64,000 nucleotides of DNA from Patescibacteria group bacterium (GCA_041671125.1 JBAZCA010000001.1:136120-200119); one strand, 5' to 3'; shown: positions 8,016 through 63,044, numbered from the stretch's first letter. Numbers and translations: made by a program. The notes: generated from the letters alone by a model not told the origin.

Positions 8016-8315
8016 CTAATGGCCGCAACAGCAACAGCAACCCTCTTTTTTATCCCGGTGAGCCTCGGCCTCTTTTTCCATTTTTTCCAGCCGTTCATAG
8101 TAATCCGGGAATTCTTTCATGTGCGCCAAGGCAATTTTTCCGGTCATGATTTCGTCGTCATCGGTAACGTTGGTTTCGGAATCAATTGAGCCGTGTTCAA
8201 GCTCAACGTCCATGCCAAAACGGAATTGCTCCAAATCAAATTTACCAAAATCAACCCCGATCTTCTCACCCACTCTTTTAGCGTCTTCCAAGGTAAAATA
8301 TTTCTTCTCGCTCAT
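8016..8315 (-). CDS. Small DUF5661-like protein with C-terminal penta-cysteine tail
   Basis: GMDVELEHG...ALAHMKEFPDYYERLEKME resembles the DUF5661 motif (assigned from memory, not searched). It ends ...KKEGCCCCCGH. Confidence 0.55.
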   Translation of the reverse strand: MSEKKYFTLEDAKRVGEKIGVDFGKFDLEQFRFGMDVELEHGSIDSETNVTDDDEIMTGKIALAHMKEFPDYYERLEKMEKEAEAHRDKKEGCCCCCGH

Positions 8316-8331: not shown

Positions 8332-9438
8332 TTAATCACCGACGCAATTCTCCCCCGAAAGGGCGCTAGGAATAAAATCCGCCTTGTCCGACTCAAGATT
8401 GGCGCAAAGTAGATATTCGCTCCCGTCATCTTTTTTCAGCTCATAATAATAAACTTTGCTTCCGGCCTGCATATTAAATACGCCGTTATTGGGAGTTGGA
8501 TCGTCAAATTCTTTTTTCTCCTCATCCCAGCAGGTCTCGGCCTTAAAGCGCGCGTCACTGCAGGCTCCGATTTTATTGACCGGGTCGGACATAAGCGGCT
8601 TTAATCCCAGTTCCCCGGCGAAATTTTCCTGCCAGCTCGGCCAGACCGAAATCGTCCTGCCTTTAAGGTAAGTCCCTGATTCCAGTTTCGGATAATAGCC
8701 GCGCTCGTGATAATCTTTTAAAGCGATTTTCATTTCCGCGAGATCGGAAAGCCGAATCGTATCCCGAACTAAACGAGCTTTCTTGCTCAGACAGTATCCG
8801 CCCGCCGGACAATCTTTGTCAAAAAGGCATTTTATGACACATTTATTTCCTTCGCAGACATACCCGTCCAGACAAGTTTCGCCGGAGCAACTTTTTTCCT
8901 CGCCGATGTTTTCGCATTTGTTCGCCGCGCCGTTGTCATTCATCAGATTAACATTGAACTTCCAATGGTCAAGGATTTGACCGAGTATGTCCATGGTCGC
9001 CTGATCCGCGTCCTGGTTATAGGAAATGATATAAATGTTGGTAAAATAATTTTCATAAATTCCGTCTCCACCGTTATCAACGATATTGGCCGCGTTAACG
9101 TAAACCGTCCGGCCGTCGCGAACCGCCTGATAGCCGTCAACCGAGAGCGACTGGGGCGCGCCCTGCACATTTACGTTTTTGGAATACCATCTTAAGGGCG
9201 AAAAGTGGTCAGGATTAGGCATAACCCGGATGGCAATGGCATCAGAAGAACCAGTGTCGGCAGATGCAACCGGTCGGTTTACAGACGTTATAAAAATAAA
9301 AAATGCGCCGCAAAAAAAGAGCGCCGCGATAGAAAGCGTCTTTATTTTTTTCGTCCGGTCATAAAGACACGCCCTCCGTAACTTTTGGATTATGAATTCT
9401 TTAAGGCTTATACCCGTCATACCGGTATTATACCACAA
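8332..9438 (-). CDS. Hypothetical secreted/membrane-anchored Cys-rich protein
   Basis: N-terminal TM helix (SIAALFFCGAFFIFI), a Cys-rich middle (CSGETCLDGYVCEGNKCVIKCLFDKDCPAGGYC), and a C-terminal segment RLSDLAEMKIALKDY. No family assigned. Confidence 0.55.
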   Translation of the reverse strand: MWYNTGMTGISLKEFIIQKLRRACLYDRTKKIKTLSIAALFFCGAFFIFITSVNRPVASADTGSSDAIAIRVMPNPDHFSPLRWYSKNVNVQGAPQSLSVDGYQAVRDGRTVYVNAANIVDNGGDGIYENYFTNIYIISYNQDADQATMDILGQILDHWKFNVNLMNDNGAANKCENIGEEKSCSGETCLDGYVCEGNKCVIKCLFDKDCPAGGYCLSKKARLVRDTIRLSDLAEMKIALKDYHERGYYPKLESGTYLKGRTISVWPSWQENFAGELGLKPLMSDPVNKIGACSDARFKAETCWDEEKKEFDDPTPNNGVFNMQAGSKVYYYELKKDDGSEYLLCANLESDKADFIPSALSGENCVGD

Positions 9439-9532
9439 AACCGGGAAGGCGGTAAATGGGGTTATGTCCCATGAAACGCAAAACGCGGGGATGAATTTTT
9501 TTCCTGCAAATCGTCAATCGTAAATCTCAATG

Positions 9533-14557: not shown

Positions 14558-14600
14558 CTTTTTTACAGTCTGCTATTCATGGGATTTTTGACTTTCAGGC

Positions 14601-14699
14601 TTAGACTTTTGACTCGTGGGAAACCATCCTCAAAACCGGCTTGCTACCCGAGCCGCCGCACCCGCCTGAAAGAGACATTTTGAAGATGGATATGTTCAT
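14601..14699 (-). CDS. Candidate leader peptide, Ser/Gly/Cys-rich (32 aa)
   Basis: MNISIFKMSLSGGCGGSGSKPVLRMVSHESKV, verified codon by codon. The ATG lies 6 nt after the -10 box, so it looks leaderless. Confidence 0.55.
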   Translation of the reverse strand: MNISIFKMSLSGGCGGSGSKPVLRMVSHESKV

Positions 14700-14705
14700 A
14701 GTTAT

Positions 14706-14734
14706 ATGCTAAATAATTTTCGCCCGAGTGTCAA
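14706..14734 (-). promoter_or_regulatory. Sigma70-like promoter of the cysK leader
   Basis: Minus strand reads TTGACA (14729-14734), 17 nt spacer, TAGCAT (14706-14711), 6 nt, ATG. Confidence 0.6.
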
Positions 14735-39706: not shown

Positions 39707-40081
39707 CTAAACTTCGGCGATCGTTTCAATTTCTACGAGCGCGCCTTTGGGGAGCGCGGCGACCTGGATCGTAACTCTGGCCGGATAAGGTTCGGGAAAA
39801 TACTCGCCATAAATCTCGTTCGCCCTGGAAAAATCATTCAGGTCGCTTAAGTACATGGTGGAGCGAACCACGGCGCTAAAATTAAGGCCGGCTTCAGCTA
39901 AAATGGCTTTGATATTTTCTAAAACCTGCCTGGCTTCGGCTTCTATGCCGCCGGTAACCATATTCCCTTCCGTATCCAAAGGAATCTGGCCGGAGATGAA
40001 TAATAAGTTTCCCGATCTAATAGCCTGCGAGTAAGGGCCAATGGCCTTTGGAGCGTTGGATGCGGTTATTGCTTGCTTCAT
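39707..40081 (-). CDS. ridA: RidA (YjgF/TdcF) reactive enamine/imine deaminase
   Basis: APKAIGPYSQA...GQIPL...ARVTIQVAALPKGALVEIE is canonical RidA. It is the last gene of the ilv transcription unit. Confidence 0.85.
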   Translation of the reverse strand: MKQAITASNAPKAIGPYSQAIRSGNLLFISGQIPLDTEGNMVTGGIEAEARQVLENIKAILAEAGLNFSAVVRSTMYLSDLNDFSRANEIYGEYFPEPYPARVTIQVAALPKGALVEIETIAEV

Positions 40082-40120
40082 AAATTTGCATAATTACTAT
40101 TGGCTACAATTAAATAAAAT

Positions 40121-40304
40121 GATGCGAGCATTGAAAAATTTCGGGCGTATCACAAGCGTAGAAAGCGTGCAAAATTCCACTGTTTGAGGACCCGCCGAAT
40201 CGGCGGGGACGAGTTTGGAATTTTGCTAGCTTTCATAACGAGTGATCCGAAATTTTTCACTAGCGAGCGCTTTTTGCGCCACTTTTTCTAAAAAAGTGGC
40301 AAAA
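40121..40304 (+). repeat. Family B structured element, copy 4
   Basis: Lies between the ilvC stop and the ridA start. Near-identical by eye to copy 2. Confidence 0.8.
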
Positions 40305-40307
40305 TAA

Positions 40308-41357
40308 TTATTTCTGTCTTTCCGGCCTTAACGCCCTTACCGCCGCTCCGGCCTGCCACATCTCGGATTCGCGCATTTCTTTCAGCTCCTCATTCAGCTT
40401 AGACCGGTAATCCGGATCGCTGTTGGCTTTTAAAACCACGTCGGTTTCGTCCCCGTTTTTCACCCGGGCGTAAAGTTTTTCAAAAACCGGTTCTACTGCC
40501 TTGCGGAATTCATGGCGCCAGTCCAAAGCGCCGCGCTGGGCGGTTGTTGAACAGTTAGCGTACATCCAGTCCATACCGTTTTCAGCCACCAGCGGGACTA
40601 AACTCTGGGTCGCTTCTTCAACCGTCTCGTTAAAAGCCTCGGAAGGCGAGTGCCCCATCCTCCGCAAGAGATTATATTGGGCTTCCATAATTCCGGCCAA
40701 AGCGCCCATTAATACTCCGCGCTCTCCGGTTAAGTCGCTATAAACTTCCTTTTGGAAAGTCGTCGGGAATAAAAATCCGGAACCAACGGCAATGCCTAAG
40801 GCTTTTGCCCGGTCTTCGGCTCGGCCGGTCGCGTCCTGGAAAATCGCGAAACTGGAATTAAGTCCTTTGCCGGCGACAAAAAGCCGGCGGAGCGAAGTCC
40901 CCGAACCTTTGGGGGCGACTAAAATTACGTCCACGTCTTCGGGCGGGATAATTCCGGTCTTTTCTTTATAGGTGATGCCAAAACCGTGGGAAAAATACAA
41001 AGCCTTGCCTTTGGTCAGGTATTTCTTAACGGTCGGCCAGAGGGTAATCTGCCCCGCGTCGGAAAGCAGGTAGCAGATTATAGTTCCCTTTTCCAAAGCC
41101 TCTTCAATCTCAAATAAATCTTTTCCCGGCTGAAAACCGTCCGCCACGGCTTTGTCCCATGACGCCGAAGGTTTTCTCTGGCCGACAATCACGTTGATGC
41201 CGTTGTCTTTAAGGTTCAGTGACTGTCCGGGACCCTGCACTCCGTAGCCGATCACGGCCACGACTTCGTCCTTTAATACTTCGCGGGCTTTTTCCAAAGG
41301 AAACTCCCCGCGCGTTGTTACTTCCTCTGTAACTCCTCCAAAATTAATCTGTGCCAT
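40308..41357 (-). CDS. ilvC: Ketol-acid reductoisomerase
   Basis: VAVIGYGVQGPGQSLNLKDNG and the class I KARI C-terminal knot domain. Start placed at MAQINFGG. Confidence 0.9.
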   Translation of the reverse strand: MAQINFGGVTEEVTTRGEFPLEKAREVLKDEVVAVIGYGVQGPGQSLNLKDNGINVIVGQRKPSASWDKAVADGFQPGKDLFEIEEALEKGTIICYLLSDAGQITLWPTVKKYLTKGKALYFSHGFGITYKEKTGIIPPEDVDVILVAPKGSGTSLRRLFVAGKGLNSSFAIFQDATGRAEDRAKALGIAVGSGFLFPTTFQKEVYSDLTGERGVLMGALAGIMEAQYNLLRRMGHSPSEAFNETVEEATQSLVPLVAENGMDWMYANCSTTAQRGALDWRHEFRKAVEPVFEKLYARVKNGDETDVVLKANSDPDYRSKLNEELKEMRESEMWQAGAAVRALRPERQK

Positions 41358-41441
41358 AAATATTCGCGCGTAACATATAACATGGAACATATTCTTTCGC
41401 TCATGTTACGTGTTATGTGTTACGTGTTATGTTTTTTTAAT

Positions 41442-43181
41442 TTATTTGCAAATTAACGTATCTTTTAACGCCTGACCCGGCGGCACCATGGGAAAAACAT
41501 TCGCCTCCGGCTCAACGATAAACTCTAAAAATATTGAATTTTCACTCTCCGCCGCCTTTTTAATCATCGGCTCTATGTCGCTTAATTTTGTCACTCGGTA
41601 AGCCTCAATCCCGTAGCTTTTGGCAATTCCGACAAAATCCGGATTTTCAAGCGGCGTGCACATATAATTTTTCTTAAAAAACAGTTCCTGCCATTGCCGC
41701 ACCATTCCCAGGAAACCATTATTAACCATGATTATTTTAACCGGCAGTTTATACTCCATTATCGCTCCGAGCTCCTGCATGTTCATCTGAAACCCGCCGT
41801 CGCCCATGATTGACCAGACTTCCCTTTCCGGCCTGGCGATTTGCGCCCCGACCGCCGCCGGCAGGCTGTAGCCCATGCACCCGAGTCCGCCGGAAGAAAG
41901 AAACTGCCCCGGATAATTAAAATTAAAATAATGGGCGGTCCACATCTGGTTTTGGCCGACGTCGGAAACAATGATTGAATCTTTTTTAGCCTGCCGGGAA
42001 ATCTCTTCAATCACTTCAAAAACAAATATGTGTTTGGTTCTTTTTAATTTAGCTTCGGTTTTTATTTTATCCAGACAGGTTTTTTCCTCCATTTCGCAAA
42101 TCTTATCAATCCAGCCTCTCCTTCGCAGACTGGCGGATTCTCCGCCCGTAATGCCTGCCGTTTTCAAATTTAACACTTTAATAATATCTTTGCAATCGCC
42201 TAAAAGGGCGGCGTCGGCCGGAACGTTTTTCCCGATCTCCCGCGGGTCAATTTCAATATGGATGACTTTAGCCCGCTTAGCGTAGTGTTCAAGGTTGCCG
42301 GTTATCCGGTCGGAAAATCTCGTTCCGATGGCGATGATCAGGTCGGCGTTATGGATCGCTAAATTAGCGTACGCCATGCCGTGCATCCCCACCATGCCAA
42401 AATTTAACGGATGATTATCCGGCAAAACGGAAAGCCCGAGCAAAGTCGTAACAAAAGGCAAATCGTTTAATTCAACAAATTGCTTAAACTCCTCCGAAGC
42501 GCCGGAAAGAATTATGCCGTGGCCGGCGATTACTACCGGCTTTTTTGACCCGCTAATAAGCGCCAGGGCTTTTTCCATTTCGCTTTCCAGGTCTTTTGAA
42601 ATCTTTTTATCAATGCTAGCGCGCGAGACCGCTTCATCGCCCTTTGGATAGACAAATTCTTTTACTTCGGCCTTAATTACGTCCACCGGCAAATCAATAT
42701 GCACCGGCCGTGGCCTTCCGGATCTCGCGAGATGAAAAGCTTCCTTAACGATCCGGGGCAGGTCTTTAACGTCTTTAACAAAATAATTTTTCTTAGTGAT
42801 CGGCCGGGTAACTTCGGTCATTTTTATTTCCTGAAAAGCGTCGGTGCCGTAAATCTTCGTGGACACCTGAGCCGTAATCGCCACCATGCCGATTGAGTCC
42901 ATGTAGGCGTTGGCTATGCCGGAAATAAGGTTTGTCGCGCCGGGTCCGGAAGTACTTAAGCAGACTCCCGGTTTTCCGGTAACGCGAAAATAAGCGTCAG
43001 CCGCCATGGCCGCGCCCTGTTCGTTTCGCGGCATGACATGCTTAATCTCGGGATAAGAGGTAAGCCGGTCATGCAGAGGGATAGTAACTCCGCCCGGATA
43101 ACCAAAAATCACCTCCACCCCTTCCTCCAGTAATGATTTTATTAATATATCAGCGCCAATCATATATTTCTCATAACTCAT
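41442..43181 (-). CDS. ilvB: Acetolactate synthase large subunit
   Basis: GADILIKSLLEEGVEVIFGYPGG and the ThDP motif GDGGFQMNMQEL...NN. Start placed at MSYEKYM. No small-subunit (ilvN/H) gene is adjacent. Confidence 0.9.
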   Translation of the reverse strand: MSYEKYMIGADILIKSLLEEGVEVIFGYPGGVTIPLHDRLTSYPEIKHVMPRNEQGAAMAADAYFRVTGKPGVCLSTSGPGATNLISGIANAYMDSIGMVAITAQVSTKIYGTDAFQEIKMTEVTRPITKKNYFVKDVKDLPRIVKEAFHLARSGRPRPVHIDLPVDVIKAEVKEFVYPKGDEAVSRASIDKKISKDLESEMEKALALISGSKKPVVIAGHGIILSGASEEFKQFVELNDLPFVTTLLGLSVLPDNHPLNFGMVGMHGMAYANLAIHNADLIIAIGTRFSDRITGNLEHYAKRAKVIHIEIDPREIGKNVPADAALLGDCKDIIKVLNLKTAGITGGESASLRRRGWIDKICEMEEKTCLDKIKTEAKLKRTKHIFVFEVIEEISRQAKKDSIIVSDVGQNQMWTAHYFNFNYPGQFLSSGGLGCMGYSLPAAVGAQIARPEREVWSIMGDGGFQMNMQELGAIMEYKLPVKIIMVNNGFLGMVRQWQELFFKKNYMCTPLENPDFVGIAKSYGIEAYRVTKLSDIEPMIKKAAESENSIFLEFIVEPEANVFPMVPPGQALKDTLICK

Positions 43182-43251
43182 AACAAAATTAATTTTTTTC
43201 AATGTTGCGGCAGAATCTCCCGAAGGGGATTCTGCCGGTATAACACAATTG

Positions 43252-44871
43252 TCATGCATTATGTGTTACGTTATATCTATATTTTTCCATCAGTTTTGTC
43301 ATTCTTCTTTCGGGTATTTTTACCTTTTTCAGCCTAAATTTTATTTCCTTCGTGCTCAGTTTAACATTTAACTTCCGTTTCGGAATGTCAATCTCAATAA
43401 TATCTCCATCTCGTACAACTCCAATCACCCCGCCTAAGTACGCTTCAGGCTCAACATGCCCGATCGCCGCTCCCCGGGTTCCGCCGGAAAATCTTCCGTC
43501 AGTTATCAGGGCGCATTTTAAGCCGGCGCCGGAAATCGCCGCGGTCGGAGTTAGCATCTCCGGCATGCCCGGCGCCCCGGCCGGTCCCATGAAATTAATA
43601 ACGATGACATCGCCGTCCTTTATCTTCTTATCACGCACCGCTCTTAACACGGCTTCTTCAGAATGGAACACGCGCGCCGGTCCGGTAATTTTCATCATCT
43701 CCGGTTCCACGGCAGTCTGTTTAACTACAGACGCGCGAGCCAGGTTGCCTTTTAATACCGCGATGCCGCCTTCTTTATAAAACGGATCATTAAGCGGCCG
43801 AATCACTTCATCATCTTTCACCTTGGCCGCTTTGGCAATTTGTTTTATGCTTTTTCCGTTAATAGTATCAGCTTCCAGTAAATATTTTTCAAGCCGCTTT
43901 AGCACAGCTGGCATTCCTCCGGCCCGATCCAGCTCTTCCATGACAAAAGGCCCGGCCGGCCGGATATGGCAGATATTCGGCGTTACCCGCGCCAGGTCGT
44001 CAAACACATGTAGAGGCAGATCAATTCCGCATTCTTTAGCTATGGCCGGGAGATGCAAAGCCGTATTGGTTGACCCGCCGATGGCCATATCCACCCGGAC
44101 GGCGTTTAAAAACGCGTTCCTGGTCATTATATCTCTCGGCTTAATATTCTTTTTTACTAATTCCACGATCCGTTTTCCGGTCGCGTAAGCCTGTTTTTTC
44201 TTTTTTGGATCAACAGCCAAAGTTGTCGCGCAACCGGTTATTGACATGCCCAAAACCTCGGTCATGGCCGCCATGGAGTTAGCGGTAAAAAGTCCGGCGC
44301 AAGATCCGGCTCCCGGGCAGGAAGCGCACTCTATTTCCAGCGCTTCTTTTTTCGTTAATTTTCCGGCCTCGTATTTACCGACCGCCTCAAAATCGGAAAT
44401 TACATCCATCTTCTTGCCGTTCACTTTCCCGGCTTTCATCGGCCCGCCGGTTAAAATCGCCGTTGGCAGGTTCAGCCGTCCGGCCGCCATAAGCATGCCG
44501 GGCGTAATTTTATCGCAGTTCGTTACTCCGACCCAGCCGTCTAAAGAATGGGAGAGCGCCATGATTTCAATATTATCGGCAATATGTTCCCGGCTCGGTA
44601 AAGACAGGCGCATTTCCACGTACATGGCTATGCCGTCGCAAACTCCGGGAACGCCCCATTCAAAAGGCACGCCGCCGGCTGCCCGGATTCCTTTTTTCAC
44701 TTCTTCGGCCAGTTCGCGCAAATGAATATGTCCGGGGATAATATCGTTATACGAGTTGGCCACGCCGATGAAAGGTTTTTTAAAATCATTATCTTTTAAA
44801 CCGGTAGCCCGAAGAAGCGCCCGGTGCGGCATGGTAGCGATTCCTGTTTTTAGCTTTTGTGATGGAAGCAT
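43252..44871 (-). CDS. ilvD: Dihydroxy-acid dehydratase
   Basis: [29 protein letters not shown] and GRFSGGTRG motifs. Confidence 0.95.
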
Positions 44872-44879
44872 AAATAATC

Positions 44880-44985
44880 GTCATTCTGAGCTGAGTGAAA
44901 CGAAGCGAAGAATCTCGTGTTAATTCCGAAAACGACGAGATCCTTCATTCCGTCCCGATGACTCGGGACTTCATTCAGGATGACA
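44880..44985. repeat. Family C palindromic repeat
   Basis: gtcattctgagctgagtgaaacgaagcgaagaatctcg...gagatccttcattccgtcccgatgactcgggacttcattcaggatgaca. Confidence 0.75.
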
Positions 44986-44996
44986 TACTAAAAATT

Positions 44997-45896
44997 TTAT
45001 ACATACGTCAGCCACTTACTGTATTTCTCGTTCTCGCCCGCCACAATTCGCATAAACTCCTCGTTCAGCTTCCCGGTAATCGCTCCGATTTTTCCGTTGG
45101 CAATTAACTGGCCGTTAATTGATCCAATCGGCGTTACCTCGGCCGCCGTGCCGGTGAAAAAGCATTCATCCGCGGCCAAAGCCTCCTCTAATAAAACTAT
45201 CCTTTCTTCTGTTTCATATCCTAAATCGCGCGCCAGTTCAATTATGGATTGTCTGGTAATCCCCGCTAAAATATTTCCCAAAAGAGGCGTAACCAGTTTG
45301 CCTTCTTTTGCCAGGAAAAAATTTTCTCCCGGCCCTTCGGCAATGTTCCCGTTAAAATCCAAAAGAAGCGCCTCGTCATAACCTTCGCTGTTAACTTGCA
45401 AAAAGGACAAAATGGAATTTACGTAATGGCCGCAGATTTTCGCGTCGGTAACTGATGACTTTGGATGGATTCGAATATAATCCGCCACTTTCACTTTTAT
45501 CGGGTCAGCGCTTAGATATTTTCCCCAGGGCCAGGCGGCGATTATAGCTTCCACCGGACAGCCTAACGGACTGATCCTTAACTCGCCGTAGCCGTAATAA
45601 ATAAGCGGCCGGATGTAGCCCTGTTTCAGTTCGTTTATCCTAACGGTCTCAATCACCGCGTTTTTAAATTCTTCTTTGGTCCAGGGCATTTTCATTTTTA
45701 TGGCTCCGGCCGAATAATAAAGCCGGTCAATATGCTCTCCCAGCCGGAAGATGACCGGCCCTTTCTCGGTTTCATACGCGCGGATGCCTTCAAAAACCCC
45801 GGAGCCGTAATGGATCGAATGGCTAAGGACATGGACTTTAACCTCTTCCCATAATTTCATCTCCCCGTTTTGCCAGATGTATTTAGTGGATTGCAT
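44997..45896 (-). CDS. ilvE: Branched-chain amino acid aminotransferase
   Basis: HYGSGVFEGIRAY, PLGCPVEAIIAAWPWG and FFTGTAAEVTPI are fold-type IV motifs. Confidence 0.9.
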   Translation of the reverse strand: MQSTKYIWQNGEMKLWEEVKVHVLSHSIHYGSGVFEGIRAYETEKGPVIFRLGEHIDRLYYSAGAIKMKMPWTKEEFKNAVIETVRINELKQGYIRPLIYYGYGELRISPLGCPVEAIIAAWPWGKYLSADPIKVKVADYIRIHPKSSVTDAKICGHYVNSILSFLQVNSEGYDEALLLDFNGNIAEGPGENFFLAKEGKLVTPLLGNILAGITRQSIIELARDLGYETEERIVLLEEALAADECFFTGTAAEVTPIGSINGQLIANGKIGAITGKLNEEFMRIVAGENEKYSKWLTYV

Positions 45897-46050
45897 AGAT
45901 AATTTTCAATTTCAAATTTTCAATTTCTAAACAATTTTCAATGAATTAATTTCTAAATTTTATTCCGAATCACCGGATTAATTAAAAATTTAAAAATTGG
46001 AAATTGTTTGAAAATTAGAAATTGAAAATTGAAAATTTTACTTGTTACTG
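45897..46050. repeat. Family E AT-rich long hairpin
   Basis: Arms ttttcaatttcaaattttcaatttctaaacaattttcaatgaattaatttctaaatttt and aaaaatttaaaaattggaaattgtttgaaaattagaaattgaaaattgaaaat. Confidence 0.7.
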
Positions 46051-46073
46051 AGTAGTAAACTTTTAATAACGAT

Positions 46074-47936
46074 TCACTTTTTTTTGTCCTCTTTTTTATT
46101 ACATAAAATATTATACGCGCGTTCAAACGCCTCTATGCTCGCCACAATTATATCCGGCGAGGTGGCGGTTGAAATAACTTTGTTTTCAGCCTCGTCTTTT
46201 AAGCCCATAGTCACTTCAACCGACGCGTCAGTTCCTTTGCGGTCAATTTTTACGTCAAAATCAATGAGCCAGTAATTCGGCAGTTTTTCGTTCTTTATGA
46301 CTTCGCGCACGGCTTTCATTATCGCGTCCACCGGACCGACGCCGAAAGATTTTCCCCGGCAAACCCGCTTTCCCGCTACCCGGACGCAAACCTCGGCTTC
46401 GGCCCGGGCGGTTTTTGACGTTGATACGTTGAAATCTTCCACGCTGATGATTTTTTTCGCTCCCGGATCGGTTTTTAAGATGGACTCAATAATATGCTGT
46501 AAGTCCGATTTCCTCATCTTATCTTCTTTTTTAAAAAAATTTTCCACTTCAGCCTGGATGGCGACGAGATATTTTTTATCAAGGCTCACCCCGAATTTAC
46601 CCTTAACGGTTTTTTCCGTCTTCTTTAAAACCGGACATTTGGTAAAAAGCACTTCCACTTTATCTTTTTCCACGGTTGACTGGATATTGTAAAGTTTCAT
46701 TTTAAGGTAATGGTCTACCTCGGAGAGGTTAGGTTCAATTGACGGCGGCGAAGGCAGAATTTTTAACATAGTCACCGGATCCTTAAGCCCGTTGCCGGTC
46801 AAAACGCAAACAACGGTTTCTTCTTTTTTTATTACGCCTTTTAAAGCGAGCATTTTTACGGCCGCGAGCGGCAGGGCGGCTGACGGCTCAACAAAAATTG
46901 ATTCTTCGCTGGCGAGCTCTTTTTCCGCTTTAAGAATTTCCTCGTCCGAGACTTCTAAAGCCATGCCTTTGGATTCTTTTATATCCCTCAAAACTTTCAG
47001 GCCGTCCACCGGGTAACCGACCGCCACGGCCGAAGCGATTGTCCGGGGTTTGGGGATTGGTTTTATTTTCGTGGTTTTTTCGCGGTAAGCCAGGGCAATA
47101 GTGTTGGACCCTTCGGGCTGGACGCCGATTACTTTCGGCAGTTTGTTAATAAAACCAAGCTCGTAAAACTCGCGCATGCCTTTATAGATGGCCGCAATGT
47201 TGGTTCCGCAACCGACCGGCACGATTAAGTAGTCTGGCGCGTTCCAGCCGAGCTGTTCCACTATTTCATAGCCTTGGGATTTCTGACCTTCACCGCGGAA
47301 TACATAGTCTCCGGCCAGATAAAATTTATATTTTTTCGCGATTTCTTCGGCCAGTTTCGCGCACTCCGAATAAGTCGCCCGAACCTGGATTACCCGGGCG
47401 CCGTAAGCGAGGGTCTGCGCCAGCTTTCCGATCGGCGTGCCTTCGGGCACGACGATATAAGCCGGAATTCCGGCTTGAGAGGCGTAGGCCGAAACCGAAG
47501 CGGCCATATTGCCGGTTGAAGCGACGACGACCGCCTTAGCGCCCATTTCCAGGGCTTTGGTTATTTCCACCATAGTCCCCCGGTCCTTAAAGCCGCCAGT
47601 CGGATTAGAAGTCTCATCCTTAAAATACAAATTTTCCAGTCCGAGCCGCTTGGCGATTTTCCGCGATTTCCGAAGCGGCGTCCCGCCTTCGTTTAACGTT
47701 ACCAATTTTTTAAGATCAAGAATCGGGTAAAAATTAAGATACTTGGTCGCGGAAATCGGCGCGTACTTTAAATTAAACTGGTTTAACCGGCATTTGATAA
47801 AATCCCAGTCATATTCGGCTTCCAAAGCGTCGCCGCATTTTAAACAGGACGAAGATGTTTCTTTTTCATCCCAAACCGTCCCGCATTTAACGCATCGCAA
47901 CCGGTAAAACTTAACTGTGCCTTTTGAAGAAACCAT
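46074..47936 (-). CDS. Threonine-synthase-like PLP enzyme fused to a C-terminal LeuA-type allosteric domain
   Basis: N-terminal zinc ribbon (CVKCG...CLKCG). FKDETSNPTGGFKDRG (PLP lysine) and TGNGLKD are ThrC-family motifs. A linker of about 100 aa follows. The C-terminus GVGPVDAIMKAVREV...DASVEVTM...SPDIIVASIEAFERAYN parallels the LeuA C-terminus. Confidence 0.7.
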   Translation of the reverse strand: MVSSKGTVKFYRLRCVKCGTVWDEKETSSSCLKCGDALEAEYDWDFIKCRLNQFNLKYAPISATKYLNFYPILDLKKLVTLNEGGTPLRKSRKIAKRLGLENLYFKDETSNPTGGFKDRGTMVEITKALEMGAKAVVVASTGNMAASVSAYASQAGIPAYIVVPEGTPIGKLAQTLAYGARVIQVRATYSECAKLAEEIAKKYKFYLAGDYVFRGEGQKSQGYEIVEQLGWNAPDYLIVPVGCGTNIAAIYKGMREFYELGFINKLPKVIGVQPEGSNTIALAYREKTTKIKPIPKPRTIASAVAVGYPVDGLKVLRDIKESKGMALEVSDEEILKAEKELASEESIFVEPSAALPLAAVKMLALKGVIKKEETVVCVLTGNGLKDPVTMLKILPSPPSIEPNLSEVDHYLKMKLYNIQSTVEKDKVEVLFTKCPVLKKTEKTVKGKFGVSLDKKYLVAIQAEVENFFKKEDKMRKSDLQHIIESILKTDPGAKKIISVEDFNVSTSKTARAEAEVCVRVAGKRVCRGKSFGVGPVDAIMKAVREVIKNEKLPNYWLIDFDVKIDRKGTDASVEVTMGLKDEAENKVISTATSPDIIVASIEAFERAYNILCNKKEDKKK

Positions 47937-48090
47937 ATATTTTTACAAAACCACTTTATGGAGCTTGCGCGTTTGGATGCGATTCCCTGCCTGCCGGCAG
48001 GCAGGAAGGCGGCGCCGAGAAACGGAACGAGTCGTACTTAAGGTACGGCGAGTGAGTATCGCAGACGCCAACGCAGAAGCTCTAGATATT

Positions 48091-48152
48091 TAAAAAACCA
48101 CCTATGTTGGTGGCAGTTTTCTTTTCCTTTTAGTCCAATTATGAAACTGCCA
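48091..48152 (-). terminator. ilv attenuator: terminator and antiterminator segments
   Basis: Minus strand: GUGGCAGUUU (48142-48151) is perfectly complementary to AAACUGCCAC (48112-48121). The terminator is CCACC-AACAUA-GGUGG followed by UUUUUU (48094-48115). Confidence 0.65.
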
Positions 48153-48218
48153 CTAGGTGGGAATAATCAAGCTTACTACTACTACAATATCCAGGTTTTT
48201 TGGCAGTTTTTTTATCAT
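48153..48218 (-). CDS. Candidate leader peptide, Ile/Val/Leu-rich (21 aa)
   Basis: MIKKLPKNLDIVVVVSLIIPT, verified codon by codon. 11 of 21 residues are branched-chain. The ATG lies 6 nt after the -10 box. Confidence 0.7.
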   Translation of the reverse strand: MIKKLPKNLDIVVVVSLIIPT

Positions 48219-48224
48219 GTTATA

Positions 48225-48253
48225 ATTCTAAAGCTTTTCCTTATGCGTGTCAA
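48225..48253 (-). promoter_or_regulatory. Sigma70-like promoter of the ilv leader
   Basis: Minus strand reads TTGACA (48248-48253), 17 nt spacer, TAGAAT (48225-48230), 6 nt, ATG. Confidence 0.6.
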
Positions 48254-48280
48254 GGGCTTTTTACAGGCTTTTTTCAGTAT

Positions 48281-48309
48281 TTGACTGCAAAGGTTTTCTT
48301 AAGTAATAT
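48281..48309 (+). promoter_or_regulatory. Divergent sigma70-like promoter for leuCD-leuB
   Basis: TTGACT (48281-48286), 17 nt spacer, TAATAT (48304-48309). Followed by the hairpin cctcatatctcataa / ttatgagatatgag. Confidence 0.5.
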
Positions 48310-48399
48310 TAAATAAACAAACCTCATATCTCATAACTTTGTTTCAGAATAAAAGTTACGATTTATGAGATATGAGTTATGAGATATGAGTTACGAGTT

Positions 48400-50394
48400 A
48401 TGAGTAATAAAACCGCTTTTGAAAAAATTATAGAAGATCATCTTAAAAAAACTCTTCCAGACGGGAGACTGATATTAAGGCTGGACTGGGTTTGGGGCCA
48501 TGAAATTACGACCCCGAACGCCATTTTAGACATGAAAGCCCGGGGCATTAATTCGGTTTTTAATCCTAACCGGATTAAGCTCATGATTGACCATGTCAAT
48601 CCCCCGAAAGACACAGCTTCGGCCATCCAGGCAAAAATTATAAGGGACTTCGCGCGCGAAATGGATATTGAATTCCTTGAAGTCGGACGGAACGGGGTCT
48701 GCCACGCGGTCATTCCGGAAAAAGGCTGGATCGCGCCGGGCCAGATCGGCATCATGGGCGACTCGCACACTTCCACCCACGGCGCGTTCGGCGCTTTTAC
48801 CGCCGGGGTCGGCACGACTGACCTTGAAAACGCGCTAATCACCGGTTTATGGATTTGTCCGCCCCAGAAAGTTATTCGCGTTAATTTTATTGGTGAGCTT
48901 CCGAAAAACGTTTTCGCCAAAGACTTAGCCTTAACGCTTATAAAAAAAATCGGGGTTAAGGGCGCTACTAACGCGGTCCTTGAATTCGGCGGTCCGATAA
49001 TTTCCGGTTTAAGCATGGAAGGTCGGATGACAATTTCCAATATGGCGATTGAAGCCGGAGCGAGCTCGGGATTAATGCCGATTGACGAGAAAACCATTGA
49101 TTATCTCTGGCTCTCGCTTAAAAAAAAGTATGGCTCAAAAAAAGCGGCGCTGGATGAATTATCAAAATGGAACAGCGACGAAGGCGCCGAATACGAAAAA
49201 ACCGTTGAAATTAGCGCGAGCGAATTAACGCCGGTCATTACTGATAATTACTCACCCGAAGACGTCCATCCGGTTAAAAAATTGGCGGGCAAAAAGATTG
49301 ACCAGGTCTATATCGGCTCCTGCACCAACGGCCGGATTTCCGACTTACGAATCGCGGCCGGAGTATTTAAAACATTCGGCTCCTCCCCCTTACTAAGGGG
49401 GAGGCTGGGAGGGGGTAGCGTCCATAAAAACGCAAGATGCATTGTCGTTCCGGCCAGCCAGCATATTTACAGCCGAGCCATGAGGGAAGGCTTAATAGAC
49501 ATATTTTTAAAAGCCGGCTGTCTCGTCAGCGCGCCGACTTGCGGCGCCTGTCTCGGGATGAGTAACGGAGTGATTGCTCCGGGTGAAACCTGCGTTTCTA
49601 CGACCAACCGGAACTTTCCCGGCCGGATGGGCAAAGGCGGCATGGTGCACTTGGCCTCGCCCCTGACCGCCGCGCTCACGGCCATAGAGGGAAAAATTTC
49701 CGAACCGGGTATTGAGCTCGGAAAAAAAACCGAAGCGTTTATTTTGGCTCTGCCAGAATCCAAAGAACCGCCCCAAGCTTTAACCGGCTGGAAAGAGAAG
49801 ACTGTTCCTCTTCCTGATTTTAAGAACCTGCTAAAAACCATAAGCGCCGGCAAAGAAAAAAACTTCTCCGGAGAAGTTTTTTACCTGCCGATAAAAAATG
49901 TTGACACTGACCAGATAATCCCGGCTCGCTACTTAACCGAAACTGATAAAACCGAACTCGGGAAGCATTGCCTTGAAGACGCGGGACTCACGGATGAAGA
50001 CAGAAAAAAAATTTATCAGTCGCGGATTTTGGTGGCCGATGAAAATTTCGGTTGCGGTTCGTCCCGCGAGCACGCCCCCTGGGCTCTTGAAGCCGCCGGG
50101 ATAAGATGTATCATTGCTCCATCTTTCGCGAGAATTTTTTACAATAACATGTGGAATAACGGCCTTTTATGCGTTGAACTAAAACCTGAGGAAATTAAAG
50201 AACTATTCCATAACAAACCCGCCAGACTTGATATTGACTGGAATGACGACCGGATCAGGACTGAAGCTAAAAAAGAATATAAATTTAAACTATCAGAGTA
50301 TCAAAAAGAATTAATTCAAAATAACGGTAGTGTCGGCGCCATGCTAAAACTGGCGGTAAAGATTTTTCCTCCCCCTTACCAAGGGGGAGGCTAG
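48400..50394 (+). CDS. leuCD: 3-isopropylmalate dehydratase, fused large and small subunits (LeuC-LeuD)
   Basis: Aconitase-family large subunit (GDSHT, IGSCTNGR, CGACLGM, TNRNFPGRMG). A linker follows, then the small subunit (VDTDQIIPARYL, ENFGCGSSREHA). A family D repeat sits in frame at 49381, and the stop lies in the family D repeat at 50392. Confidence 0.85.
   Translation: MSNKTAFEKIIEDHLKKTLPDGRLILRLDWVWGHEITTPNAILDMKARGINSVFNPNRIKLMIDHVNPPKDTASAIQAKIIRDFAREMDIEFLEVGRNGVCHAVIPEKGWIAPGQIGIMGDSHTSTHGAFGAFTAGVGTTDLENALITGLWICPPQKVIRVNFIGELPKNVFAKDLALTLIKKIGVKGATNAVLEFGGPIISGLSMEGRMTISNMAIEAGASSGLMPIDEKTIDYLWLSLKKKYGSKKAALDELSKWNSDEGAEYEKTVEISASELTPVITDNYSPEDVHPVKKLAGKKIDQVYIGSCTNGRISDLRIAAGVFKTFGSSPLLRGRLGGGSVHKNARCIVVPASQHIYSRAMREGLIDIFLKAGCLVSAPTCGACLGMSNGVIAPGETCVSTTNRNFPGRMGKGGMVHLASPLTAALTAIEGKISEPGIELGKKTEAFILALPESKEPPQALTGWKEKTVPLPDFKNLLKTISAGKEKNFSGEVFYLPIKNVDTDQIIPARYLTETDKTELGKHCLEDAGLTDEDRKKIYQSRILVADENFGCGSSREHAPWALEAAGIRCIIAPSFARIFYNNMWNNGLLCVELKPEEIKELFHNKPARLDIDWNDDRIRTEAKKEYKFKLSEYQKELIQNNGSVGAMLKLAVKIFPPPYQGGG
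49381..49420. repeat. Family D half-element in frame within leuC
   Basis: tcctcccccttactaagggggaggctgggagggggtag encodes ...SSPLLRGRLGGGS... Confidence 0.75.
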
Positions 50395-50446
50395 GAGGGG
50401 GTTGTTTTTCCTCCCCCTTACCAAGGGGGAGGCTAGGAGGGGGTTG
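50363..50446. repeat. Perfect tandem duplication of a 42 bp family D unit
   Basis: tttttcctcccccttaccaagggggaggctaggagggggttg occurs at 50363-50404 and again at 50405-50446. It contains the leuCD stop codon (TAG at 50392-50394). Confidence 0.85.
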
Positions 50447-50448
50447 TG

Positions 50449-50868
50449 ATGACCAGAATCTTTAATCTAAAAGCTAAAAAAGAAATCAGGAAAAAGCTTA
50501 GAGCGCAGACTCATGTTGTCAGCTGTGAAAAACTACTTTGGTATAAATTAAGAAAATCTCAGTTAAATTATAAATTCAGAAGGCAACACGGAATCGGAAA
50601 TTACGTAGTTGATTTCTACTGCCCCCGACTAAAGATAGTAATTGAAGTTGATGGCGCCACCCATTCAAGTGACAGGGAAATTCAGTATGATAATTTAAGA
50701 GAAAATTATTTAAAGAGTTTAGGATTAGTCGTGAAGAGATATTTTAATCACGATATTAAATATAGCTTGGGCGCTGTGTTAAGCGATATAAATGAAACTT
50801 GCTTAAAACGAGTTAATCAGCACAAACCCCTCCCTAACCCTCCCCTTCTTAAGGGGAGGGGAAAATTT
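50449..50868 (+). CDS. DUF559 (Vsr-like endonuclease fold) domain ORF with no stop codon before leuB
   Basis: EKLLWYKLRKSQLNYKFRRQHGIGNYVVDFYCPRLKIVIEVDGATH is the DUF559 signature. It is flanked by inverted family D arms and runs in frame into the leuB ATG at 50869. Confidence 0.7.
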
Positions 50869-52056
50869 ATGCTTAAAAAAACAATCGCTCTCGTCCCTGG
50901 CGACGGCTCGGGTCCGGAGATGATGCGGGAAGCTTGCGCGATAGTAGCCGAGGCGGCTAAAAAAGATAATATTAAAATTGAATTCGTAAATACCCCCATG
51001 GGCTGGAATGCTTACCATGAGTTTGGCGATACCCTGCCCGGGGAGTCTTTTAAAAAGGCCGTTAAAATCGGGACGATTTTTTTCGGCGGCGTCGGCGACC
51101 CGGAATTTGACCTGACTATTGGCAAAGAAAAACCGGAGATGATGCCTGAAGCCCGGGCGCTTTTAGCGCTCCGTAAAACCATGGGCCTATTATTGAACTT
51201 CCGGCCAATGGTCTTTTATAAAACCCTGGACCATTTAGCTAATGTTAAGCCGGAAAACATCCCCGAAGAAGGCGTTAAGCAATACTGGATCCGGTTTCTT
51301 CTTGAAGACAGCTATTTCGGCAATATTGACTTTCAGCCCGAGGCTGATCCGCCTTTGGCGAAAAATATCAGCTTCCGCGAAGAAATAAGAAAGAAAATCG
51401 GACTTAAATTAAAACAAGATGTAACGATTGATGATGAAATTATTACTGATCTGGCTTATTATAAAAAATCCACGCTGGAAAAATATTTCCGCGCCTGCTT
51501 TTCTTACGCCCGCGAATTAAACCTCCCGCTCATCTCCGTTGACAAAGCCAATGTCATGGCTCGCCACGATTTTTGGCGGAAAATCGCGACGAAAATCGGC
51601 GCCGAAGAATTTCCGGACGTGAAATTAATCCATCAGCTCGTTGACTCGGCCAATTCAATGCTTTTCACGCCGGCGAAATTAAACGCTGTTATTGCCTGCG
51701 GAAATGAGCACGGCGACATTCTTTCCGACGGCGCGGCCGCGGCTTTAGGTAGTATGGGGCTTATGTGCTCTTCATCAATTAACCCGGAAACGAACGCCGG
51801 ACTTTTTGAATCCGGCGCCGGAACCGCTCCGACTTTAAAAGGCGCGGACAAGGCTAATCCGCTCGGCCGGATTTTAACCGGAGCGCTTATGCTAAGACAT
51901 ATTGGCGCGAAAGTCGGCGCCGAAGCCATAGAAAAAGCCGTCAACCAGGTTTTGCGCGACGGCTACCGCACAGGAGACCTCTTTACCAAAAACGATGACG
52001 CCTCTAAACTGCTCGGCACGTCGGGAATGGGAGAGAAAGTTTTTAGCTGCTTGTAA
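50869..52056 (+). CDS. leuB: 3-isopropylmalate dehydrogenase
   Basis: IALVPGDGSGPEMM, LNFRP and GDILSDGAAALGSMGL are isocitrate/isopropylmalate dehydrogenase motifs. Context is with leuCD and leuA. Confidence 0.85.
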   Translation: MLKKTIALVPGDGSGPEMMREACAIVAEAAKKDNIKIEFVNTPMGWNAYHEFGDTLPGESFKKAVKIGTIFFGGVGDPEFDLTIGKEKPEMMPEARALLALRKTMGLLLNFRPMVFYKTLDHLANVKPENIPEEGVKQYWIRFLLEDSYFGNIDFQPEADPPLAKNISFREEIRKKIGLKLKQDVTIDDEIITDLAYYKKSTLEKYFRACFSYARELNLPLISVDKANVMARHDFWRKIATKIGAEEFPDVKLIHQLVDSANSMLFTPAKLNAVIACGNEHGDILSDGAAAALGSMGLMCSSSINPETNAGLFESGAGTAPTLKGADKANPLGRILTGALMLRHIGAKVGAEAIEKAVNQVLRDGYRTGDLFTKNDDASKLLGTSGMGEKVFSCL

Positions 52057-52331: not shown

Positions 52332-53942
52332 TCACAAGCTCGCCAGATACCAGCTTAAGCAATTGGCGAACGCCTGGGCCGAGGCCTGGTTAGTATCAAT
52401 ATGGACCGCCCGGCCGGAAAAAGTATGGTTTTCGTCATTATTAATTCTTATCCGGCCGTAAACGTCGGCCAAAGCGTCTGATCCGGATGAAACCGCTACC
52501 GGCCGCCAGTCATTAAGGCTGATCTTCACTTTTTTTAACTCGGGATAAAATTCTTCCGCCGCCCGGATTACCGAGTGCATGATCGCGTCATACGGCCCGA
52601 CGCCGACTGAGGCGCTAATGCTTTCTTTGCCGTCAATTTCAACGACCACGGTCGCGGTCGGGAGACTGCCTTCTCCGCCGATAGCCTGACAGCGCTTTAC
52701 TTTAATCGGGAAAGGGATAATATCAATAGTCTCGTGCACAATCGCCGCCAGCTCCCGGTCGGATAAAGGCTTGCCGGCCATGGCCTCGGAAATTTTTACG
52801 GACTCGCTATAAATTTTTTGCAGTTCTTCTTTCCCGAGCGCGTATCCAAGCTCTTCCAGCCTGATGCGAAGCCCTTCCCGGCCGGAGGATTGGTTGATCA
52901 CGGTCGTAACTTTGGCATGACCGTAAGTTTCCGGGTGCCAGCTGTAATAAGCGCTCTCCATTCCCTGCTCCCGAGCTCGGGCTTCTATGGCCTGATGGGT
53001 GCCGGAAGAGCAGATTGAATTTTGCGCGCCGACGACGACCCAATGCCGCGGCACGTTCATGCCTAAGGCGTTCGCTATAAAGCTAACGATTTTTACGCAA
53101 AGCTCCGGTTTAAAATCAATCTTAAAATCACCGAACATGTCCTGCCGGGTATGCATGTTCATAATTATTGCCTCAAGTTTAGTCATGCCCGAGCGTTCGC
53201 CTAAACCGAAAAATGTTCCTTCAATAATGTCCGCGCCGTTTAACACGGCTTGCAGGGCGTTATGGGTTCCATGATCAGAGTCATTATGGCAGTGGATGGA
53301 AATAAGGGCGTTTTTCCGGTTAGGGACGTTTTCTTCAATTAGAGCGATTAAATCCCCGAATTCATTACCAACCCGAAGTCCGGTCGTATCCGGAATGTTG
53401 ACAACATCCGCTCCGGCGGAAATCACCGCGCCGACCATCCGGTACAAAAATTCCCGGCTGGTCCGAGCCGCGTCCTCCGGAGAATATTCTATACTTTTAA
53501 AACCAAGGCTCTTCGCGTAAGCCACCATAGCCCCTGCCTGGTCAATGGTCCAGTTTTGCTTTCCTTCCACAGTATCGCCGTATTTATCGGCGGCGAACAT
53601 GGCTTTGACAAAATCAGGCGAGGCCGGAATATAGATGTGGCATAAATCGCACCCCGCCTCCTTAATCGCGTCAATGTCTTCTTTTTTCGCCCGGGCCAGT
53701 CCGCCTAAAAGCGGCCTTTTTCCTTTGGCATTATTATTCACGAAATCCACAATCCGCCCGCAGTTTTCAAGCTGGACTTTAGAACTCCCGGGAAAACCGA
53801 TCTCAATCCGGTCAATGCCGCCTTCTAAAAGATAGCGGACATAAGTGAGCTGATCCCCGGGACTCATAGCCCCGCCCGAAACCTGGGCTGATTCCCGTAA
53901 GCAGACGTCGTTTAGCTGAATTTGTTTTTTGGCTTCGGTCAT
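52332..53942 (-). CDS. leuA: 2-isopropylmalate synthase family enzyme (a citramalate synthase cannot be excluded)
   Basis: LRESAQ, IEIGFPGSS and HCHNDSDHG are DRE-TIM HMGL-like motifs. C-terminal LeuA allosteric domain (GVGPYDAIMHSV...). Preceded by a Leu-rich leader. Confidence 0.85.
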   Translation of the reverse strand: MTEAKKQIQLNDVCLRESAQVSGGAMSPGDQLTYVRYLLEGGIDRIEIGFPGSSKVQLENCGRIVDFVNNNAKGKRPLLGGLARAKKEDIDAIKEAGCDLCHIYIPASPDFVKAMFAADKYGDTVEGKQNWTIDQAGAMVAYAKSLGFKSIEYSPEDAARTSREFLYRMVGAVISAGADVVNIPDTTGLRVGNEFGDLIALIEENVPNRKNALISIHCHNDSDHGTHNALQAVLNGADIIEGTFFGLGERSGMTKLEAIIMNMHTRQDMFGDFKIDFKPELCVKIVSFIANALGMNVPRHWVVVGAQNSICSSGTHQAIEARAREQGMESAYYSWHPETYGHAKVTTVINQSSGREGLRIRLEELGYALGKEELQKIYSESVKISEAMAGKPLSDRELAAIVHETIDIIPFPIKVKRCQAIGGEGSLPTATVVVEIDGKESISASVGVGPYDAIMHSVIRAAEEFYPELKKVKISLNDWRPVAVSSGSDALADVYGRIRINNDENHTFSGRAVHIDTNQASAQAFANCLSWYLASL

Positions 53943-54123: not shown

Positions 54124-54154
54124 TAATATAAAACGCCACCCTTTTTTAGGTGGC
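54124..54154 (-). terminator. leu attenuator terminator
   Basis: Minus strand reads GCCACC-UAAAAAA-GGGUGGC followed by GUUUUAUAUU. GCCACC can alternatively pair with GGGUGGC at 54191-54199 inside the leader ORF. Confidence 0.65.
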
Positions 54155-54179
54155 TTTCTTTCAATCTTCATCTAGTAAA

Positions 54180-54269
54180 CTACGTAAAAACCGCCACCCG
54201 TCTTAAAGGCAACAAGAGCAACAAGTTTAAAAACGGTTTAATATTTAATTTTTGATTTATTTTAAACAT
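54180..54269 (-). CDS. Candidate leader peptide, Leu-rich (29 aa)
   Basis: MFKINQKLNIKPFLNLLLLLPLRRVAVFT, verified codon by codon. 8 Leu, 5 of them consecutive (TTG TTG CTC TTG TTG). Confidence 0.65.
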   Translation of the reverse strand: MFKINQKLNIKPFLNLLLLLPLRRVAVFT

Positions 54270-54283
54270 ATAAAACCGCGCGG

Positions 54284-54412
54284 CTAAGCGACTTTCAAGA
54301 TTGATTTTATTTTTCTAACGTCCTCTTCCAGCGTCTTTACCATACCCAAAACAATCTCATTTTTCTCATCAAACTTATTTAATATTTCAAGTTTTTTATT
54401 ATCCTTGTCCAT
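54284..54412 (-). CDS. Candidate 42-aa helical small ORF preceding the Leu leader
   Basis: MDKDNKKLEILNKFDEKNEIVLGMVKTLEEDVRKIKSILKVA. The ATG lies 9 nt after a consensus -10 box. Its stop is 14 nt before the Leu-leader ATG. Confidence 0.4.
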   Translation of the reverse strand: MDKDNKKLEILNKFDEKNEIVLGMVKTLEEDVRKIKSILKVA

Positions 54413-54421
54413 ATTAACTCT

Positions 54422-54450
54422 ATTATATAAGCGGAGTCAGAAGTTGTCAA
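54422..54450 (-). promoter_or_regulatory. Consensus sigma70 promoter
   Basis: Minus strand reads TTGACA (54445-54450), 17 nt spacer, TATAAT (54422-54427). Confidence 0.65.
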
Positions 54451-62783: not shown

Positions 62784-63044
62784 AGCGTTGCGTCATTTTA
62801 GGCAAATTAGATTCGCTTAAAATGATATTAATTTTTACCTGGCCGGAAAACAAAAAGCTCCCCGCCAGCGATAACCATTTCTGGTCATCCATATCCCTTT
62901 CGGAATATGGCCAACCAAGGCATTCTGACGAGGAGTCATTTACCTTGGTTGGACTTTGTGCCATGCCTCAAGCATTAAAATGATTGAAGTTTAGGCTTAA
63001 ATTGTTATTCTAATATTAAAACTTTTTTAAACATTTGTAAACAT

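Follow-up and report, generated by a model that had tools for sequence, protein, structure and literature searches.

The CPR/Patescibacteria are usually viewed as biosynthetically minimal symbionts. The DNA analysed here, a 64-kb stretch (64,000 nt, referred to below as the window) from a Patescibacteria (CPR) metagenome-assembled genome, carries on its minus strand a putative operon for isoleucine and valine biosynthesis, which is preceded by a promoter, a short open reading frame (sORF) rich in Ile, Val and Leu codons, and an intrinsic terminator. This arrangement raises the question of whether the operon is governed by a leader peptide, as was proposed in a first-pass annotation made from the DNA sequence, and where the leader mRNA would start. 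That proposal gained support from conserved sORFs, a switch that depends on the position of the ribosome, compensatory changes in the helix between segments 2 and 3 (2:3), and independent recurrence of the helix between segments 1 and 2 (1:2), and the model of a ribosome-mediated (leader-peptide) transcription attenuator controlling the Ile/Val biosynthesis operon of this Patescibacteria genome is in our view very probably correct. The analysis established the elements, their conservation, the covariation, the recurrence and the in-silico switch, and the element is genuine and conserved; for the leader in the window we infer the transcription start, and also that the sORF is actually translated, that termination takes place in vivo and that the switch responds to amino acids.

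The leader and its operon

The features of the leader and the operon, all on the minus strand, are as follows.

48248-48253, minus strand: -35 hexamer TTGACA (direct reading and promoter scan)
48225-48230, minus strand: -10 hexamer TAGAAT, 17 nt 3′ of the -35 hexamer (direct reading and promoter scan)
48153-48218, minus strand: leader ORF, MIKKLPKNLDIVVVVSLIIPT followed by TAG (direct reading; orthologous sORFs in relatives)
48201-48209, minus strand: segment 1, AAACUGCCA, codons 4-6, anti-antiterminator arm with segment 2 as partner (repeat search and folding)
48174-48188, minus strand: core regulatory codons Ile11-Val12-15, AUU GUA GUA GUA GUA (direct reading)
48154-48160, minus strand: segment 1′, CCACCUA, from the final two codons and the UA of the stop codon (folding)
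48144-48152, minus strand: segment 2, UGGCAGUUU, directly 3′ of the stop codon, with segment 1 or 3 as partner (repeat search, folding and covariation)
48111-48119, minus strand: segment 3, AAACUGCCA, overlapping the terminator 5′ arm by 4 nt (repeat search, folding and covariation)
48092-48114, minus strand: intrinsic terminator, GCCACC-AACAUA-GGUGGU plus U6 (terminator scan and folding)
48104-48098, minus strand: segment 4, UAGGUGG, terminator 3′ arm
48097-48092, minus strand: U run of the terminator
47955-48082, minus strand: GC-rich palindromic insertion between terminator and first gene (folding, -50.8 kcal/mol; repeats)
39707-47936, minus strand: putative regulated operon of six genes
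46074-47936, minus strand: ThrC-like PLP enzyme fused to LeuA_dimer
44997-45896, minus strand: ilvE
43252-44871, minus strand: ilvD
41442-43259, minus strand: ilvB
40308-41390, minus strand: ilvC
39707-40081, minus strand: RidA

The layout of promoter and start codon described in the first-pass annotation was confirmed on the minus strand, where TTGACA, 17 nt and TAGAAT are followed after 6 nt (TATAAC) by the ATG at 48218-48216. With a score of 11/12 this promoter ranked first among the six promoter-like sites of a scanned 4.5-kb region, and on both strands of the 64-kb window only seven sites, this one among them, reached 11/12 or more. The ORF at 48153-48218 was likewise read as previously described (ATG ATA AAA AAA CTG CCA AAA AAC CTG GAT ATT GTA GTA GTA GTA AGC TTG ATT ATT CCC ACC TAG), with Ile, Leu or Val at 11/21 residues and four consecutive GTA codons, GTA being the rarest Val codon (14%) in the genes of the window. 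The run of Ile, Val and Leu extends past Val15 to Ile19 (48162).

The sequence AAACTGCCA, counting its complement, was present in exactly three copies in the 64-kb window, all of them within the attenuator element (minus strand 48209-48201 and 48119-48111, and plus strand 48144-48152, corresponding to UGGCAGUUU on the minus strand), with 0.49 copies expected by chance and three copies reached in 2/100 shuffles. The repeats and the complementarity of segments 1, 2 and 3 were thus present as first annotated, with the earlier coordinates of segment 2 (48142-48151) and segment 3 (48112-48121) needing a shift of 1-2 nt. The terminator scan also recovered the terminator, GCCACC-N6-GGUGGU-U6 at 48114-48092, which is short in the window (6 bp, -9.5 kcal/mol). 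The possibility that this is the terminator of an upstream gene was rejected, as the window has no co-directional gene upstream. A feature absent from the first-pass annotation is the complementarity of CCACCUA (48160-48154) to UAGGUGG (48104-48098) in the terminator 3′ arm; because these two also pair, the antiterminator becomes a 9 + 7 bp helix which sequesters both arms of the terminator. Its 5′ arm straddles the stop codon of the leader ORF in the window, and on folding of the window leader the antiterminator and the terminator were mutually exclusive, with shared nucleotides.

The first protein encoded downstream was 100% identical to an NCBI entry named 'Patescibacteria group bacterium', and its closest homologues were annotated as Patescibacteria, Parcubacteria, Gracilibacteria and Peregrinibacteria. 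This enzyme of 620 aa has a catalytic domain resembling threonine synthase (PDB 2zsj, E = 3e-75), with a match to IlvA of only ~1e-13, as well as a C-terminal LeuA allosteric domain and four invariant N-terminal cysteines (C15, C18, C31 and C34); as judged by these similarities, the operon does not open with a canonical ilvA. The combination of ThrC-like and LeuA_dimer domains is widespread in CPR, with 7115 matches among 8000 scored candidates and the same two Pfam domains in most of the best 120 listed matches. This uncharacterised enzyme may supply 2-oxobutanoate under feedback control by Ile, and such a ThrC-like enzyme with a LeuA-type allosteric domain may replace IlvA.

The GC-rich insertion at 47955-48082 is ~125 nt long and has terminal inverted repeats (GAGCTT...AAGCTC), a perfect 20-nt palindrome and a flanking 19-nt direct repeat, D2. 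It was absent from the relatives L001 and L008, it is outside the switch and is carried in the read-through 5′ UTR, and it looks like a small mobile element. Low-complexity motifs (aaaattgtttaaaaatt, cataacacgtaaca and gggattcttcgg...cagaatgac) recur in the intergenic spacers, including those of the ilv operon.

Divergent from the ilv operon are a fused leuCD and leuB. The 5′ end of leuCD (48312-48410, plus strand) contains a very stable hairpin (-29.1 kcal/mol, z = -5.8) built of CTCATATCTCATAACT and a tandem 14-nt repeat, ATGAGATATGAGTT x2, with a 16-nt perfect arm (48375-48390) over the first in-frame ATG (48379) and a second ATG (48400) just beyond. The leuB ORF (50446-52056, plus strand) is preceded by a GC-rich hairpin-like sequence, and at its N-terminus encodes in frame a DUF559 (endonuclease-like) domain (residues 12-118), with Iso_dh following at residues 146-532; this extension may be a fusion or the product of an over-extended ORF.

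Leaders in relatives and covariation

Relatives were taken to be loci encoding homologues of the 620-aa first-gene protein, from both genomes and metagenomes; the search of genome contigs gave a single close relative, L001, and further loci came from metagenomes. The regions upstream of orthologous genes had been named in the first-pass annotation as the place where absence of the sORF would speak against an attenuator, and there we found Ile/Val/Leu-rich leader sORFs on 22-23 other contigs, together with a variant in L088 (12 loci in a first set and 10/12 contigs in a further set, plus L088). The leader-bearing contigs were annotated as Patescibacteria and Parcubacteria, and their first-gene proteins were 53-83% identical to that of the window. 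On 22 contigs the sORF was located 110-235 nt upstream of the orthologous gene, with the L088 variant located farther upstream. The peptides varied in sequence (examples are MTEKLPKILDIVVVVSLIIPT, MITRPQNILLVNLILPT, MNLKYIKKVIISSVIITT, MRPTITNIIIIIIIIATQVVG and MKRLALLVIVIIIIL), while richness in Ile, Val and Leu, position, a σ70-like promoter directly upstream and the terminator were kept: TTGACA or a close variant was present at the matching place in 23/23 leaders analysed, and 22/22 homologous leaders had a terminator, 50-65 nt past the sORF stop codon. Identity between the window and L001 was 89% in the leader, 75.5% in the gene, 59% at its third codon positions and 67% in the promoter region, which speaks for selective constraint on the leader, and promoter spacing was identical in the window, L001 and L008 despite a diverged spacer sequence.

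The leader was not found everywhere that the first gene was. No leader was present upstream of the first gene in L090, because there the gene directly follows leuB, and no Ile/Val/Leu-rich sORF was found at higher-GC relatives of the first gene, such as L014, L017 and L022-L030. The attenuator element is thus limited to a subset of the first-gene family.

These comparisons also bear on whether the sORF could be a free-standing gene for a small hydrophobic peptide, such as a membrane peptide or toxin, which has its own terminator and is located beside the ilv operon by chance. Small hydrophobic sORFs are common, and the leader peptide does contain the hydrophobic stretch IVVVVSLII, but this run is only 9 residues long, the peptide sequence varies in relatives with only Ile/Val/Leu richness and position being kept, and the sORF is always found just upstream of the same biosynthetic gene, with the antiterminator overlapping its stop codon. 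We therefore consider a separate peptide gene to be extremely improbable.

Covariation was scored in an alignment of 15 close leaders, in which the antiterminator was 80% paired, as opposed to 22-54% with a slid partner, and 5/11 of its pairs had changes on both sides. The covariation score was 0.262 compared to 0.122 in shuffles, with 0/500 shuffles scoring as high, and in the terminator 98.9% of the cells were paired in the 15 relatives. Covariation analysis had been suggested as a check when the leader was first annotated, and it showed compensatory changes in the 2:3 helix. Sequence changes which keep the complementarity were seen in relatives as UGGUUAGUU:AACUAGCCA, GUGGUUGGUU:AACCAGCCAC and GCGGUUU:AGACCGC. 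This is the signature of base pairing rather than of a motif recognised by a protein, and argues against the three copies of AAACTGCCA/TGGCAGTTT being binding sites of a regulator, either as an operator array or in a TRAP-like protein-mediated attenuator. The clustering of the 9-mer, with all three of its copies in the 64 kb falling inside 100 nt, would fit such sites; with the base-pairing signature taken into account we rate them as very unlikely.

The 1:2 helix of the proposed RNA attenuator consists in the window of 9 perfect bp (duplex -13.0 kcal/mol), which was matched by 1/300 shuffles of the upstream ORF. It was missing from many relatives in the set of 23 leaders, and recurred with different sequences in five other loci from four lineages, including L008, L091, L093 and L011, where it uses nt 1-19 of the ORF. 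In L008 the helix is AGACCGC:GCGGUUU, which includes a compensatory change from U:A to C:G; here an A-to-G change in segment 2 is offset by a U-to-C change in segment 1, and a G-U pair is tolerated in 2:3. The sequences in L091 (GACCAACCAU:GUGGUUGGUU), L093 and L011 are unrelated, yet nt 1-15 of the ORF pair with segment 2. On these comparisons the 1:2 helix is a lineage-variable accessory and not part of the conserved core.

Ribosome position and the proposed switch

To follow the effect of translation in silico, a ribosome footprint of 29 nt was masked in each of 23 leaders (the window and 22 others) before folding. Folding had been another of the checks suggested at first annotation, and the switch tracked the position of the ribosome and was gone in shuffled controls. 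In the window leader without a ribosome, the minimum-energy fold was the 1:2 helix plus terminator (-26.8 kcal/mol). Placing the A site on codons 11-15 gave the extended antiterminator (-22.8 kcal/mol) instead of the terminator, while with the A site at the stop codon the terminator did form, with a probability (P(terminator)) of 0.76. A codon-by-codon profile of the window leader gave a P(terminator) of 0.00 at codons 2-15 and ≤0.06 with the A site at any of codons 2-16, and 0.56-0.79 at most codons from Leu17 to the stop, the exception being Ile18 (0.08); stalls at Leu17 to Ile19 are thus predicted to be only partly effective.

The polarity between stop and stall was alike in all 23 leaders upon masked folding. 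When the ribosome was placed at the stop codon, 23/23 leaders had a P(terminator) of 0.76-1.00, and when it was placed at the first codon of the Ile/Val/Leu run, 21/23 leaders had a P(terminator) ≤0.08. In controls with shuffled spacers the mean P(terminator) upon stalling was 0.78-1.00, and 0-4/60 shuffles were as low as the real leader.

The first-pass annotation had described the classic logic of 1:2, 2:3 and 3:4 helices. All three helices are present, but segment 1 is located upstream of the regulatory codons and does not overlap them, and in contrast to the trp model a ribosome stalled at Val13-15 leaves segment 1 uncovered. In the folding model a stalled ribosome would block the 1:2 helix by occupying its 48-nt loop, and not by covering segment 1; the longer antiterminator was also the more stable one in folding of the window leader.

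We propose that transcription from the σ70-type promoter, whose -10 hexamer stops 6 nt short of the ATG, would most likely start at the AUG or within 1-2 nt of it, and that a 70S ribosome would load on this leader without a Shine-Dalgarno (SD) sequence. With charged Ile and Val tRNAs in plentiful supply, the ribosome would reach the UAG and its footprint would lie over CCACCUA and UGGCAGUUU (segments 1′ and 2), upon which the GCCACC/GGUGGU-U6 hairpin would form and transcription would end at ~48092-48097. When Ile or Val is scarce (or Leu, at codons 5 and 9), the ribosome would stall at or before codons 11-15, leaving segments 1′ and 2 free for pairing with AAACUGCCA...UAGGUGG (9 + 7 bp), and with both arms of the terminator sequestered RNA polymerase would continue into the operon. 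If no ribosome is loaded, the AAACUGCCA of codons 4-6 would pair with segment 2 once this is made, giving the terminator by default, and this 1:2 helix would also bury the 5′-proximal part of the leaderless mRNA. As the ribosome-free window leader reaches a P(terminator) of only 0.23 at equilibrium, default termination leans on the argument of co-transcriptional folding.

The sORF at the ilv operon is accompanied in the window by a second candidate attenuator at 54135-54269 (minus strand), upstream of leuA (52332-53942, minus strand). Here the sORF MFKINQKLNIKPFLNLLLLLPLRRVAVFT, with 7 Leu in 9 residues, precedes a terminator (GCCACC-N8-GGUGGC-U, 54154-54135) resembling that of the ilv operon, and a GGGUGGC within the sORF could pair with the terminator 5′ arm. 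Simple masked folding gave no clean ribosome-dependent switch for this Leu sORF, which remains a candidate.

Transcription start and comparison with known systems

The predicted transcription start of the window leader is the A of the ATG (48218), at the canonical 7 nt after the -10 hexamer. The -10 hexamer and the ATG are separated by 6 nt in the window, L001 and L008, and by 7 nt in L009 (these being the three closest leader-bearing relatives), amid surroundings which have diverged; the distance is 6-11 nt in 15/23 leaders, a count for which L010 and L048 were measured to an upstream in-frame ATG. All 15 short-gap leaders start with ATG, whereas TTG or GTG is the start codon in 4/8 leaders with a long UTR (Fisher p = 0.024, with the tool's own start assignments). 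These features argue against the same attenuator being not truly leaderless, with transcription starting a few nt upstream or from another promoter and SD-independent initiation at the sORF. Such initiation on a 5′ UTR would be normal here, as almost all of the ~50 ORFs of the window lack an upstream SD sequence. The leader ORF has none either, but in a nearly SD-free genome this says nothing in favour of a leaderless start. A start away from the AUG is also in line with the best promoter being located 18-46 nt upstream in 8/23 homologous leaders (5′ UTR about 14-40 nt), and with the lack of overall enrichment of ATGs near strong promoters, since genome-wide 6/32 were observed 4-12 nt past such promoters with ~4-5 expected. 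As about one third of the leaders have a longer 5′ UTR, the mechanism does not in itself require a leaderless start. We infer leaderless initiation solely from promoter geometry, which fits only about two thirds of the leaders; on this basis the window leader mRNA probably has a strictly leaderless start, and we hold a non-leaderless form of the attenuator to be unlikely.

Other promoters in the window also abut an ATG. A perfect TTGACA-17-TATAAT is located 9 nt before a 42-aa ORF (54284-54450, minus strand) just upstream of the Leu sORF, a TTGACA-17-TAGCAT 6 nt before a 32-aa sORF (14600-14734, minus strand), and a TTTACC-18-TATAAT 6 nt before a 362-aa ORF (8332-9456, minus strand). These are possible further leaderless transcripts.

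Searches of Rfam gave no relevant leader, T-box or riboswitch match for 46000-50000 even at E ≤ 10, and at gathering thresholds the whole window contained only tRNAs and the LOOT RNA (RF03000), with no leader or attenuator family (Leu, Thr, His and Trp leaders among those covered). The LOOT RNA is at 62870-62997 (minus strand) and scored 79.5 bits, the gathering score being 46.4. For the CPR/Patescibacteria, the literature searched gave no relevant report of leader peptides, attenuators or mRNAs of the leaderless type.

The attenuators of the enterobacterial ilvGMEDA, ilvBN, leu and trp operons share the logic of 1:2, 2:3 and 3:4 helices with the window leader, and have in common with it the runs of codons for the end products of the pathway, multivalent sensing of Ile, Val and Leu, and an intrinsic terminator placed ahead of the first structural gene. 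Enterobacterial leaders have a 5′ UTR with an SD sequence, and their regulatory codons are inside segment 1. In the window, by contrast, the regulatory codons come after segment 1, and a leaderless mRNA is predicted.

The leaderless start had initially been seen as the difference from such attenuators, but it is not new, as the ilvBNC transcript of Corynebacterium glutamicum starts one nucleotide from the start codon, according to the account of this system in PMC11857589 (citing Morbach et al. 2000). As described there, its leader peptide IlvL, MTIIRLVVVTARRLP, is rich in branched-chain amino acids (BCAA) and translated without a ribosome-binding site (PMC11857589); that account also gives a model with anti-antiterminator, antiterminator and terminator hairpins, tested by mutation, in which the first hairpin shields the 5′-proximal region where ribosomes land on the leaderless mRNA (PMC11857589, citing Morbach 2000). 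The window resembles this system in its BCAA-rich leader peptide, its three hairpins and its predicted start at or near the AUG, and the likeness is functional only. C. glutamicum belongs to the Actinobacteria and has ilvB as first regulated gene, whereas in the Patescibacteria window the ThrC-like/LeuA_dimer fusion is followed by ilvE-D-B-C, and the antiterminator 5′ arm straddles the stop codon, unlike in the C. glutamicum leader.

Mycobacteria have leaderless polycysteine sORFs upstream of cys genes, which sense the amino acid and attenuate downstream operons, as outlined in PMC13236596 (citing Canestrari 2020), and the leader of the M. tuberculosis ilvB1 attenuator gives a short terminated transcript (PMC1262725). 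These systems differ from the window in lineage and in the details of terminator and antiterminator, and the Cys sORFs also in amino-acid specificity. The window also contains an sORF, MKEFPDYYERLEKMEKEAEAHRDKKEGCCCCCGH (about 8016-8120, minus strand), which has five consecutive Cys codons at its end and is reminiscent of the mycobacterial polycysteine regulatory sORFs. In Staphylococcus aureus (ilv-leu) and Listeria, a Leu- or Ile-rich leader peptide and a terminator are found upstream of the ilv-leu operon (PMC5794164, PMC5864092); these Firmicute BCAA leaders are unlike the window leader in their SD-dependent translation, the added control by CodY and their unrelated sequences.

What is new in the Patescibacteria leader is the organismal context, that is an SD-free CPR genome and an unusual first enzyme, and not the mechanism or the regulatory principle. 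It is possible, though in our view rather doubtful, that the leaders form an Ile/Val/Leu attenuator family spread across several CPR lineages, typically leaderless and tied to the ThrC-like/LeuA enzyme, with the 1:2 helix (the first 4-19 nt of the mRNA paired with segment 2) acting as a kinetic gate; upon transcription of segment 2, such a gate would close the 70S loading site and commit the transcript to termination. The about two dozen natural variants of one switch are a resource for studying the coordination of leaderless initiation with attenuation, and could also be used for annotating ilv operons in metagenomes. For the biology of the CPR/Patescibacteria, the findings mean that at least some of these organisms make branched-chain amino acids and control that pathway, apparently through classic transcription-translation coupling in an essentially SD-free genome.
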